From: Candidatus Latescibacterota bacterium
GTDB lineage: Bacteria > Latescibacterota > UBA2968 > GCA-2709665
NCBI GenBank assembly: GCA_965219455.1
Contig: OZ244744.1
Coordinates: 1,728,001 to 1,792,000, forward strand
Direction of reading: 5' to 3'
Length of the DNA stretch: 64,000 nt
In this document: positions 19,561-23,760 of the stretch, one piece after another
How positions within the stretch are numbered: the stretch's first letter is position 1
How the letters are laid out: each line of letters opens with the position of its first letter
Made by a program: the position numbers and the translations under genes
Notes under the pieces: generated by a model
Seen by the model: only the letters and a program-made list of their open reading frames with translations
Databases searched by the model: none
What the model was told of the DNA's origin: nothing

Positions 19561-20358
19561 TTATCTGAACCCCAACTCAACGAGTTTTGCCACCATTCCA
19601 CGAATTCGCGGGCGTTCACTGCCAAGAAATGCATCCTCGTACACACGGCCCGACTGGGTGAACTGCATCGTCTCCACAAATTTCAGATTGCTCCGGTAGA
19701 CGCGCTTCAGATATGCAATGTGCGCGTCTTCAGTGGGCTTTCTTCCAAAATTGAGGGTGAACATACGCCTGCCGGTTTTGCCGCCAAACGAGGCGTGCCA
19801 CAGGTCCTGATTGAAAAATACCACGTCTCCCGGATTGGATTCCAGCGGGAAACATGGCACTTCCTCGGGGCCGACGTCAAACGGCGACGTCTCCGGGTCC
19901 TCCCGCTGCCGCGAGAGCGGCCTGAGCTTATCGTGCATCGGCGCCGCGTGCGATCCCGGGATGACCCTGAGGCAGCCGGTATTCGTGGACACGAGATCCA
20001 GATAAAACGCCACCTTGATCCGGCGGTAACCCGGATCCGACCCGTCCGGATGCCATCCGGTATCCCCCACGTACAGATTACCGTCCGATCCGATCCACAC
20101 GAAATCCGGCCCGAGCAGCTCCCGAATGGGGCAATAGATCCGGTTGTCCTCTACCAGCCCGGTCAAGACGGGATCTTTTTCGATACATCCCAGCACCGCC
20201 TGCCGCGATCCACCCTTGAACGGCAGTCCCTGCCGGTCCTCGTCCAGCACCCTGTCAAAAGCCCTTGTGAGGGTCTCAATTTCCTCGGCGGAAAAGTACT
20301 CGCGCATCACGAGAAAACCGAACGTCTCAAAATGCAGTCGCTGCGCCGCGGTCAACAT
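19561..20358 (-). CDS. Phytanoyl-CoA dioxygenase (PhyH) family protein
   Basis: FETFGFLV, WHPD, CLRVIPGSH, PGDVVFFNQDLWHAS. Confidence 0.88.
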   Translation of the reverse strand: MLTAAQRLHFETFGFLVMREYFSAEEIETLTRAFDRVLDEDRQGLPFKGGSRQAVLGCIEKDPVLTGLVEDNRIYCPIRELLGPDFVWIGSDGNLYVGDTGWHPDGSDPGYRRIKVAFYLDLVSTNTGCLRVIPGSHAAPMHDKLRPLSRQREDPETSPFDVGPEEVPCFPLESNPGDVVFFNQDLWHASFGGKTGRRMFTLNFGRKPTEDAHIAYLKRVYRSNLKFVETMQFTQSGRVYEDAFLGSERPRIRGMVAKLVELGFR

Positions 20359-20742
20359 CGGGGTTCTCCCTCACGGTTTCTGTTAAGATCATATAAACGT
20401 GGCATATTCCGTAATGCTCCGGCGCCACCCGCGAGTACGGGTGATCACGCGCGGACAACCGACATTATGTTTGATGGAACCTGCGCCCGGTCGGCTTCGT
20501 CAGCTGAATACAGGACCCGGGCATGCGATCGAACTTGCACACACCCTCCTGCAATGATCCTGTACGCCTTTCGTAAGTAGGCCCGTGCACGATTTTACTC
20601 CAGAATTCACATGAGATTCTATCACCATGCCGCCGCCGCATTGAATAACCGGCCGCGCCAACGGACGATTCGACGGGAAGAACGGTCGGAATTCCGGCAA
20701 GGAATGCGAAGTCCCGCTGCGAATCAACAACAGTATACGCTC

Positions 20743-20770
20743 TTGACTTTCCGGTTGTATTCGTTAATTT
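20743..20770 (+). promoter_or_regulatory. Putative sigma70 promoter
   Basis: TTGACT-16 bp-TAATTT about 225 nt upstream of the GTG at 20996. Confidence 0.45.
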
Positions 20771-20816
20771 CAGTGCGGCACGCCGCGTAATAGCCTGCAA
20801 TCTCGGCATACCACCG

Positions 20817-20990
20817 TGGTCGCGGTCCGGCGGCGGTCCGGATCAGCGCCCCGGCAATGTGAAAGCGTTTGACCTGTTGAGAGAGGCATTTCGCCGTGTT
20901 CAATGGTCCGACTGACCTTACGGAACCCCCGTCGACGGACTGAATCCAGTAAATACCTACCTCCCGCCGTCAGGAGGAATCAAGGAGGCG
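20817..20990 (+). promoter_or_regulatory. Candidate structured cis-regulatory leader RNA
   Basis: Nested helices 20825-36/20929-40, 20837-40/20921-24, 20843-46/20912-15, 20852-59/20887-96; CCTCC anti-SD at 20960 with two GGAGG partners. Confidence 0.5.
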
Positions 20991-20995
20991 CATTC

Positions 20996-22264
20996 GTGCA
21001 CGTCGCCATTATCGGCAACGGCGTCACCGGTGTTACCGCGGCGATCAGGCTTCGGCGCAAACAGCCCGACTGGCGCATTACCCTCATCTCCGGCGAATCC
21101 AAGTACCACTACTCCCGGCCGGCCCTGATGTACATTTACATGGGCCACATGACCTACAAGGGCACCAAACCCTTCGAAGACGACTTCTGGTCCATAAACC
21201 GTCTCGACCTGCGCCGCGACTGGGTCACCGCGATCGACGCCGCGCAGAAATGCCTTACCCTTCACCGAGGCGGAGATTTCCACTTTGACAAATTGCTCAT
21301 CGCCACCGGCTCCAAGTCCAACAAATTCGGTTGGCCGGGCCAGGACCTCAAAGGCGTCCAGGGTCTCTATTCCCTGCAGGACCTCCGCACCCTCTACGAA
21401 AGTGCAAAGGACACCCACCACGCCGTTATTGTCGGCGGCGGCCTTATCGGCATCGAACTCGCCGAAATGCTGCATTCGCGAAACATTCACGTCACCTTTC
21501 TCGTTCGTGAACCGACTTACTGGGGCAACGTCCTCCCCAAAGAAGAGTCCGGCATGGTCAACGAGATTATCCGGGAACAGGGCATGGGTCTCAAACTCCA
21601 GGCCAGTCTGAAGGAAATACTGGACGACGGGAACGGCAGAGCATGCGGCGTTGTAACGGAAGACGGCGAACGGATGGAATGCCAGTTCGTCGGCCTCACC
21701 GCCGGTGTTTCTTCCAATGTCGACCTTGTAAAGGCGTCCGCCATAGAAACCGGCCGGGGCATTCTGGTCGATCACCGTTTCCAGACGAATGTTTCAGACA
21801 TTTACGCCGCGGGCGACTGTGCGGAAATTGTAACCGGCGGCGACCGCAACCTGCTCCAACAGGTCTGGTACACCGGCAAAAAACAGGGCGAGGTCGCAGC
21901 GGACGTCATCGCGGGCGAAGACCGTTCCTACGACCCCGGCATCTGGTTCAACTCCGCCAAATTTCTGGACCTGGAATACCAGGTCTACGGCCGGGTCAAC
22001 CTCAACGTGCCGGGCGAAAGGAACCTTTTCTGGCAGCACCCGTACCAGCGCCAGTCCGTGCGTATTGTGTACACCGATCAGGGCGTGATCGGCTTCAACC
22101 TCATGGGCATCCGCTACCGCCACGAAGTCTGCGAGGCCTGGATTTCGGAAGAGCGCCCGGTCAACTTCATTCTGGAACACCTTGCGGAAGCCAACTTCGA
22201 CCCCGAGTTCTACGACCGTCACGAATCCGAAATCGTTCCTGCCCTAAGGGAGCAACTGTCATGA
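20996..22264 (+). CDS. NAD(P)/FAD-dependent oxidoreductase (rubredoxin reductase/NirB-like flavoprotein)
   Basis: IIGNGVTG, LLIATGS, VGGGLIGIELA, IYAAGDCA; GTG start after AAGGAGG. Confidence 0.88.
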   Translation: MHVAIIGNGVTGVTAAIRLRRKQPDWRITLISGESKYHYSRPALMYIYMGHMTYKGTKPFEDDFWSINRLDLRRDWVTAIDAAQKCLTLHRGGDFHFDKLLIATGSKSNKFGWPGQDLKGVQGLYSLQDLRTLYESAKDTHHAVIVGGGLIGIELAEMLHSRNIHVTFLVREPTYWGNVLPKEESGMVNEIIREQGMGLKLQASLKEILDDGNGRACGVVTEDGERMECQFVGLTAGVSSNVDLVKASAIETGRGILVDHRFQTNVSDIYAAGDCAEIVTGGDRNLLQQVWYTGKKQGEVAADVIAGEDRSYDPGIWFNSAKFLDLEYQVYGRVNLNVPGERNLFWQHPYQRQSVRIVYTDQGVIGFNLMGIRYRHEVCEAWISEERPVNFILEHLAEANFDPEFYDRHESEIVPALREQLS

Positions 22265-23760
22265 TAGATACCGCCACCCTCGACTATGATTTCGACGAAG
22301 AAACGCTTGGCTTCGAAGAACCGCCCGCGCAGCCCGCGCCGCCGGCATCCTGGTCTGAAAGGCTCTCCATTTCCGCCGTTGCCCTCGGCTTCCTTGCCCT
22401 CATCGTCACCCTGCTCGGTCCCCTTTCCGGCACATGGACCGGCCTGCTGCTCAGCTTCGGCCTTATCGTGCTCGGATCGGCTGCGTTTTTCTGGTCCACC
22501 TACAGGAACACCGTTCCCGGCATCAAACACGATGGCATCATGTTCGGCAGCGCGACCCATCTGGGTCTCATCGGGTGGGGTCTGGGCACTGCGATCACAG
22601 GGTTTTACGTCGTGCTCTACTGGTGGCCCGAATACCTGGATCGCGGTGTTCGGCTCGTCGAACCTCTATCCCAGGCGCTCGCCGGCGTCCCGGCGGACCG
22701 ATGGTTCTTCTACGGCTTTCTGTACACGCTCGCCATCCTCGTGTTCGGCGTTCGCATGTTCATGAAGTACCGCCATAACCGCTACCAGATCATCCGCACC
22801 GCCTCCGTCATGTTTTTCCAACTCGGGTTCGCCTTTCTCATTCCGCAGCTGCTCAAGAGCTTTAACCAGCCCGAGTTCTATTTCACCTATTTCTGGCCGC
22901 TCAAGTACGACTACCTTTTCCCCTCCACCGTGGGCAGTCTGACCAGCCATCCGGGCGCCCTTGGCGTCTTTATGGTCTTTTGGGGCGCCGTGGCCACCTT
23001 TATAGCCACGCCGGTGCTCACCTACTTTTACGGAAAACGCTGGTACTGCTCATGGGTATGCGGTTGCGGCGGCCTCGCAGAGACCATGGGCGATCCCTTT
23101 CGCCAGCTGTCCAGCAAGTCAACCCAATCCTGGAGGATCGAAAGAGGCATCGTCTACTCGGTCCTCGTCTTCGTTACTGTCACCACGGCCGCGCTCTGGA
23201 TCAATTCCGCCACGGAAGGCCGCGTTTTCGGCCGCCTGTCCGGGCCGCTTGCCAGCGCGTACGGTTTCTACATCGGCGCCCTGTTTTCCGGCGTCATCGG
23301 CGTGGGTTTCTATCCTCTGATGGGAAGCCGCGTCTGGTGCCGTTTCGGCTGCCCCATGGCCGCAATTCTGGGCATCTTCCAGCGTTTCTTCTCCCGCTTC
23401 CGAATCACCACCAACGGCGGCCAGTGCATGTCCTGCGGCAACTGCTCCACATACTGCGAAATGGGCATCGACGTCCGGGCGTACGCCCAGCGCGGCGAAA
23501 ACATCGTACGGGCTTCGTGCGTGGGATGCGGCATCTGCTCCGCCGTCTGCCCGCGCGGCGTGCTCAAACTGGAAAACGGTTCCACGCACGCCGACCGGTA
23601 TCCAGGCGCCGATCGGCCCCTGGCGGCCTTCCAGGAAGCGTTGAGCGCGGCAAAAGTCTACGAGGGGAAAAACGGGTCGGCTGCTGCGCCTGAACCCGTC
23701 GATCCTTCCCTCCACAGCCAGCGCAGGCCGCTCAAATCGCAATTCAGGCGGCGTCTATAA
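22261..23760 (+). CDS. Polytopic membrane 4Fe-4S binding protein (NapH/FixG-like, dicluster)
   Basis: YCSWVCGCG, WCRFGCP, CMSCGNCSTYC, CVGCGICSAVCP; ATGA overlap with upstream gene. Confidence 0.88.
   Translation: MIDTATLDYDFDEETLGFEEPPAQPAPPASWSERLSISAVALGFLALIVTLLGPLSGTWTGLLLSFGLIVLGSAAFFWSTYRNTVPGIKHDGIMFGSATHLGLIGWGLGTAITGFYVVLYWWPEYLDRGVRLVEPLSQALAGVPADRWFFYGFLYTLAILVFGVRMFMKYRHNRYQIIRTASVMFFQLGFAFLIPQLLKSFNQPEFYFTYFWPLKYDYLFPSTVGSLTSHPGALGVFMVFWGAVATFIATPVLTYFYGKRWYCSWVCGCGGLAETMGDPFRQLSSKSTQSWRIERGIVYSVLVFVTVTTAALWINSATEGRVFGRLSGPLASAYGFYIGALFSGVIGVGFYPLMGSRVWCRFGCPMAAILGIFQRFFSRFRITTNGGQCMSCGNCSTYCEMGIDVRAYAQRGENIVRASCVGCGICSAVCPRGVLKLENGSTHADRYPGADRPLAAFQEALSAAKVYEGKNGSAAAPEPVDPSLHSQRRPLKSQFRRRL

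Follow-up and report, generated by a model that had tools for sequence, protein, structure and literature searches.

The question raised by this locus is whether the long leader in front of a two-gene operon of a Latescibacterota bacterium is a new, riboswitch-like regulatory RNA or an ordinary 5′ untranslated region (UTR). The stretch of DNA that we analyzed, 64,000 nucleotides long and referred to below as the window, belongs to a complete genome of 5.84 Mb with 58.3% GC, and the leader lies in a 637-nt intergenic gap with a minus-strand gene upstream and a plus-strand operon downstream. A first-pass annotation of the window had proposed that the leader folds into a long nested rod and ends in a translational switch, in which a pyrimidine tract pairs either with a decoy or with the true Shine-Dalgarno (SD) sequence.

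Genomic context and start of the flavoprotein gene

The gap is bordered upstream by a PhyH-family gene (19561–20358, minus strand). Downstream, on the plus strand, lies a gene for a 422-aa flavoprotein with a GTG start (20996–22264), which matched Pfam Pyr_redox_2 (E = 1e-48) and gave only sub-threshold matches in NCBIfam, to ferredoxin- and rubredoxin-reductase-like families. Its stop codon is overlapped by the start of a gene for a 499-aa membrane Fe-S protein (22261–23760, plus strand), which carries Pfam Fer4_5 and Fer4 dicluster domains and has a match to NapH/MauN (E = 2.9e-15) that falls below the curated cut-off. The leader heads a two-gene electron-transfer operon, encoding a Pyr_redox_2 flavoprotein and a NapH-like polyferredoxin, whose neighbors are the PhyH-family gene and an isocitrate dehydrogenase gene, with no linked regulator gene.

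Relatives of the flavoprotein are widespread, occurring in 594 of 600 candidate stretches from records titled Saprospiraceae, other Bacteroidota, Planctomycetota, Acidobacteriota, and others. Their distribution is patchy: the flavoprotein is absent from 4/5 genomes from other genera of the window's family, and the operon is present in only one of five. Two long minus-strand ORFs (20465–20809 and 20957–21775) run across the promoter, the leader and the coding region of the flavoprotein. The former is without a Pfam match, and both are probably spurious products of a GC-rich genome.

Mechanical ORF calling began the first gene of the operon at an in-frame ATG at position 20903, which gave a 453-aa protein (ORF 20903–22264). 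Under this reading the leader would be partly coding and the flavoprotein 31 residues longer. The ORF does stay open in frame, but just 5 of the 15 leaders in the alignment keep the ATG, the frame is disrupted by single-base indels between clades, and in 16/16 leaders an invariant GGAGG, a 7-nt spacer and a GTG codon stand ahead of a canonical Rossmann-fold N-terminus. From these three observations it follows that the region is non-coding. We regard a coding extension as extremely improbable and effectively refuted already, and the gene start is now fixed at GTG 20996 (not 20997) instead of the ATG.

A conserved promoter-like block upstream of the leader

About 225 nt 5′ of the start codon sits a conserved promoter-like block (20743–20771, plus strand), made up of TTGACT, a 16-nt spacer and TAATTT plus a C. 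The exact 20-base pattern was found at 16/16 orthologous loci, a similar block is retained in the sister genus, and within the window the pattern is unique even when 3 mismatches are allowed (0 expected). A consensus promoter scan of 20200–21200 returned no plus-strand promoter or terminator; as the block was not flagged there, it is from conservation alone that we infer its function, and TTGACT-16-TAATTT (20743–20770) is most likely a sigma-70-like promoter. Transcription would then start at 20776–20787 on the plus strand, 5–15 nt 3′ of the −10-like hexamer.

Contigs from four RNA libraries (two studies) read through from the leader into the coding sequence, bearing in mind that such libraries may contain DNA and that contigs do not mark RNA ends. 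Two of them, one contig per study, end at 20784 (X16) and 20787 (X18), while those of X15 and X17 extend further upstream, to 20570 and 20721, respectively. The former ends are compatible with the putative start and give a weak hint of it. Positions that the contigs leave uncovered were not counted as evidence, and neither were two RNA runs labeled as a metagenome of an animal host, which contained only a small part of the sequence words. With the promoter block some 225 nt upstream and contigs that run into the coding sequence, the proposal that the flavoprotein/NapH-like Fe-S operon has a long leader was borne out.

When we scanned metagenomes for the promoter pattern, it was found at 10 loci, only one of which (L107) has an orthologous leader. 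In the complete genome, the only other site within 3 mismatches of the pattern lies on the minus strand at G000:C1:5653802–5653830 (locus L157), and what follows that site is unrelated in sequence. A second conserved block is found 5′ of the promoter at 20474–20515, and is readable as a 27-codon ORF (MEPAPGRLRQ..., extending to 20557). Of 14 genus loci displayed, ~10 have a similar block upstream of the promoter, at a distance that varies. The block may represent a small gene or a hairpin, or it may serve to regulate the divergent PhyH gene.

A clade-specific insertion supplies the 5′ arms of the rod

The long nested rod had been proposed on the basis of sequence complementarity, and this complementarity is real, with 19 of the 20 proposed pairs able to form. 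The arms at 20825–20836 and 20929–20940 are complementary at 11/12 positions, including one G-U, and the 4-bp helices 20837–20840/20921–20924 and 20843–20846/20912–20915 are complementary throughout. As a structure, the rod did not stand. The minimum free energy (MFE) of 20777–21005 was −77.3 kcal/mol, compared with −80.1 ± 4.8 kcal/mol for 200 shuffles (z = +0.59), and 144/200 shuffles folded as well or better. The rod is missing from the MFE structure; when forced, it reached −74.4 kcal/mol, ~3 kcal/mol above the MFE, and its pairs had ensemble probabilities of 0.010–0.015.

Alignment of 16 leaders revealed a clade-specific insertion of ~111 nt (20780–20890, plus strand, boundaries ± 10 nt). 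It is carried by the window and by two of its relatives (G011 and G013) only, all with leaders of 224 nt, and the remaining 13/16 leaders, of 111–115 nt, are without it. Every 5′ arm of the rod falls inside this insertion, and because its 5′ half is clade-specific, the rod is absent from those 13 leaders. We found no homologs of the rod with covariation, an outcome that the first-pass annotation had itself named as counting against it. G011, G013 and the contigs of all 4 RNA-library runs have an A at 20828, which creates an A-G mismatch, and the 3′ arm is unchanged in G011 and G013, so that this change is uncompensated. A T at 20836 is among the differences listed for the X17 and X18 contigs. 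From this, we concluded that the rod is a complementarity between a young, GC-rich insert and an old leader, and that it is not a selected structure. A GC-rich, lineage-specific insertion is evidently able to produce a convincing-looking long rod.

Also among the differences listed for the X17 and X18 contigs is a 7-nt tandem duplication after 20865, inside the insert, which shows that the insert continues to change from strain to strain. The possibility that the insert arose from the core leader by tandem duplication and then diverged was tried and rejected, since the local alignment score of 25 was equalled by 102/1000 shuffles; with other insert boundaries the score was 29, equalled by 9/300 shuffles, which we judged not significant. 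As a repeat or mobile element, the insert gave only short, GC-rich chance matches across the genome and the phylum.

A search of the 64-kb window against Rfam returned 0 matches at gathering score, as did a search of 20 diverse ortholog loci from other phyla. In the first-pass annotation the leader had been said not to resemble the TPP, FMN, SAM-I, cobalamin or c-di-AMP consensus, and no Rfam family reached its threshold. In E-value mode, the only plus-strand match within 20300–21100 was to RF02954 (DUF3577), at 20762–20864, with 17.9 bits (E = 1.3) against a gathering threshold of 42.6 bits. The region shares a hairpin and a linker sequence with this model, but the match covers the promoter and the insert and not the conserved core. 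We take the usual context of RF02954 to be upstream of a DUF3577-domain gene, hence the family name, whereas the protein downstream of our leader matches Pyr_redox_2 and related FAD/NAD families only. No publication on the DUF3577 RNA motif was found in the portion of the literature that was accessible.

These observations bear on whether the ~111-nt insert is itself functional, as a miniature mobile element or as an RNA distantly related to the DUF3577 motif. The weak RF02954 match includes several consecutive identical bases in the linker, which is single-stranded, and in the MFE structure the insert folds back on itself. Against this, the match lies far below the gathering score and the gene behind the insert does not encode a DUF3577 protein; the insert is single-copy in its own genome, and among the 168 genomes of the phylum it is found in its three carriers and nowhere else; and its own fold is unremarkable, with a z-score of −0.48. 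Because the three carriers are 95–99% identical over the insert, covariation within it is unreadable. We consider a function of the insert highly improbable.

Extent and conservation of the core leader

What the genus shares is a core of ~107 nt in the window (20889–20995, plus strand), delimited by two alignments (A1 and A2) and a covariance model (R1). This core corresponds to the entire leader in the 13 relatives without the insertion, where its length is narrowly kept at 111–115 nt. A BLAST search of 20740–21000 against 40 related genomes matched 13/14 congeners and 0/26 genomes outside the genus, and all matches were directly 5′ of the orthologous flavoprotein gene. Model R1 gave a single match of 84–117 bits in each of 15/15 genus genomes; outside the genus, nothing exceeded 24 bits in 7 family genomes from other genera and 136 genomes of the phylum, and none of the weak matches that were checked adjoins an ortholog. 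The sister-genus ortholog keeps the promoter block and has a leader of merely ~55 nt. A more distant ortholog in another Latescibacterota genome (locus L046, 2800–3000; 72% protein identity) has an AT-rich leader that is unrelated in sequence and contains several ATTGAA-type words followed by inverted TTCAAT-type words, which could form a long hairpin or serve as operators.

Within the genus, between-clade identity of the leader is 0.58, compared with 0.66 for the 4-fold codon sites in the flavoprotein gene next to it (65 pairs), a yardstick that is not strictly neutral given the codon bias of a 58% GC genome. The only stand-outs in between-clade identity are an internal block at 20934–20946 on the plus strand (0.77; A1 columns 53–65, ending in GAAUC), the AAUCAA that precedes the SD (0.82), and the SD (1.0). 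An aptamer-like core conserved across divergent taxa is absent, with leader identity below that of the 4-fold sites and the element found in one genus only.

Folding and covariation of the core

For 15 single-sequence leaders, fold z-scores ranged from −0.43 to +1.40 (mean +0.36) under nearest-neighbor models, which are blind to tertiary or ligand-stabilized folds. With no aptamer-like conservation, a mean z-score of this order and no Rfam family, the description of the leader as riboswitch-like was not supported, and nothing indicates a ligand-binding aptamer.

RNAalifold predicted just two helices, of 5 bp each, and the consensus energy was −6.0 kcal/mol. Column shuffles gave −1.8 ± 1.6 kcal/mol, and the consensus energy was equalled by 9/500 of them when all 15 rows were used and by 109/500 with 10 less redundant rows. 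Helix H1 (20889–20893/20921–20925, plus strand) is paired in 89% of cells, and in 3/5 of its pairs both sides have changed, across three clades. It is the only helix to show compensatory changes, and it is missing from the MFE structure of the window. A competing 5′ hairpin, P1, excludes H1 and is paired in 73% of cells. The consensus energy and H1 give some signal of selected structure in the core. As only ~four clades of one genus are available, the power to detect covariation is low.

Further candidate pairings were rejected. Helix H3, which would join 20939–20943 or the block columns to the start-codon region (columns 114–118), is paired in 89% of cells with no two-sided change, and this count is uninformative because there is no covariation; the result equals that of every shuffle. 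A small hairpin at 20920–20932 is found in many leaders, in three alignment registers, is lost in G005 and was not taken as covariation; the register of a long-range GACGG:CCGUC pairing is inconsistent between clades.

In the 5′-UTR stabilizer type exemplified by the Escherichia coli ompA leader, a hairpin stands at the 5′ end of the transcript. Every clade of the genus likewise has some hairpin near the start of the inferred transcript, within ~35 nt of its 5′ end, namely P1 in most clades and a 4–5 bp GC hairpin at ~20777–20790 in the clade of the window. Unlike a conserved stabilizer, these hairpins are non-homologous between clades, and P1 is not paired in all cells.

The anti-SD, decoy and SD tracts

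The first-pass annotation had placed a CCTCC tract at 20960, a decoy GGAGG at 20973 and the true SD GGAGG at 20984, and all three are present on the plus strand at these positions (20960–20964, 20973–20977 and 20984–20988). In the MFE structure, the decoy forms the 3′ arm of a local hairpin with the anti-SD tract; the SD, 7 nt before the start codon, is invariant in 16/16 leaders. Across the genus, 92% of cells allow the anti-SD tract (A1 columns 79–83) to pair with the SD, and 79% allow it to pair with the decoy. The exact CCTCC occurs in 8/16 leaders, 12/16 have five or more consecutive pyrimidines, and a decoy purine tract is found in every A1 row. The genome has 919 GGAGG-led ORFs of ≥150 aa; CCTCC precedes 21 of them at no more than 45 nt, a purine decoy precedes 48 at no more than 20 nt, and this locus alone combines the two. 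The triad exceeds chance and its tracts persist across the genus, so the arrangement that had been described is real and conserved, and its persistence argues for a functional, possibly regulatory, 3′ module.

The step from this arrangement to a translational switch was not supported. In partition-function models, the SD was masked no more than in shuffled leaders: its opening energy was below the shuffled-leader mean in 14/16 leaders and never significantly above it, and the highest case (G011) was matched by 11/100 shuffles. The MFE structure of the window has the CCTCC tract paired with the decoy and the SD left open. Because the SD is invariant, compensatory evidence on the anti-SD:SD helix is not possible. 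In these models, the CCUCC/decoy hairpin would occupy the anti-SD tract and leave a strong SD (GGAGG, 7 nt, GTG) free, from which it follows that the default state, as modeled, would be efficient translation.

Leaders that sequester their SD, including riboswitch expression platforms, commonly use alternative pairing between anti-SD and anti-anti-SD segments. The leader of the window resembles them in having an SD-complementary pyrimidine tract within 25 nt upstream of the SD, and a second purine partner that yields, on paper, two mutually exclusive hairpins. It differs in that we found no sensing domain, no masking of the SD beyond chance and no covariation on the SD helix, and in that the element is confined to one genus.

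Discussion

We think it probable that the leader is an ordinary 5′ UTR of an electron-transfer operon, restricted to one genus and drifting fast. Transcription would start a few bases 3′ of the conserved sigma-70-like block; the ancestral leader of the genus would have been ~113 nt long, as against ~55 nt in the sister genus, and the clade of the window would have gained ~111 nt directly after the start site. Regulation, if any, would be exerted mainly at the promoter block and not via a ligand-binding RNA. The conserved features at the RNA level are short and local, consisting of helix H1 and the CCUCC/decoy hairpin.

Two other explanations assign a regulatory role to conserved pieces of the leader, for which the sequences span only ~four clades of one genus. 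According to one of them, the conserved pieces are protein-binding sites, recognized either by a DNA repressor 3′ of the promoter or by an RNA-binding translational regulator. The candidate sites comprise a pair of direct repeats with the pattern G-W-C-N-G-R-C-N-G-A-A-Y, ~29 nt apart (20905–20917 and 20934–20946), and two GAAUCA motifs. The second repeat is the most conserved internal block (0.77), its invariant positions being by turns G and C (G, C, G, C, G over A1 columns 53–61), and identity rises to 0.82 in the AAUCAA block; the sister genus, too, has a GAAUCA-like motif ahead of its SD. A perfect 10-bp inverted repeat lies just past the start zone in G010 and G005, with imperfect versions in other members of their clade. 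Yet the operon has no linked regulator gene, the repeats were chosen by eye, and the locus was kept even though the insertion shifted the first repeat away from the promoter by 111 nt. CsrA, which might have been titrated at GGA motifs, is absent from the complete genome: PF02599 gave 0 matches in this 100%-complete sequence, in a search whose positive controls were matched in 3/14 control genomes. We consider protein-binding sites in the leader unlikely.

According to the other explanation, which we hold to be quite unlikely, the leader is a genus-specific translational switch in which translation is on when CCUCC pairs with the decoy GGAGG and off when it pairs with the true SD. Its trigger would be a small ligand, temperature, or a trans-acting RNA or protein that acts at the decoy, the loop or the upstream core (H1 versus P1). 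The triad speaks for this, as it is conserved, can pair in both ways (SD in 92% and decoy in 79% of cells) and is unique among the 919 SD-led ORFs, as do the mutually exclusive 5′ helices (H1 paired in 89% and P1 in 73% of cells) and a consensus fold that was better than column shuffles in 491/500 trials with all rows. These points are set against leader z-scores near zero, the missing aptamer-like core, an SD masked no more than by chance in 16/16 leaders, and anti-SD:SD pairs without compensatory change, the SD being invariant. In addition, the decoy pairing changes register between clades, the motif was not found beyond one genus, and the clade of the window tolerated a 111-nt insertion that parts the 5′ elements from the core.

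On our preferred reading of an ordinary, fast-drifting 5′ UTR, the outcome is the removal of a false riboswitch candidate, which has little importance beyond annotation, together with the marking of a strongly conserved promoter block for a Latescibacterota operon. The conserved triad, unique in its genome, is the only point of possible wider interest. It is distinctly improbable, in our estimation, that the 113-nt core has only recently become a cis-regulatory RNA, peculiar to this genus, in which CCUCC sits on the decoy (on) or on the SD (off), as set by a trans-acting factor or metabolite. If this were so, the clade of the window would have added a further structured domain of 111 nt, and the locus would provide an uncommon glimpse, within an uncultured phylum, of a regulatory leader that is just arising or has only lately arisen.
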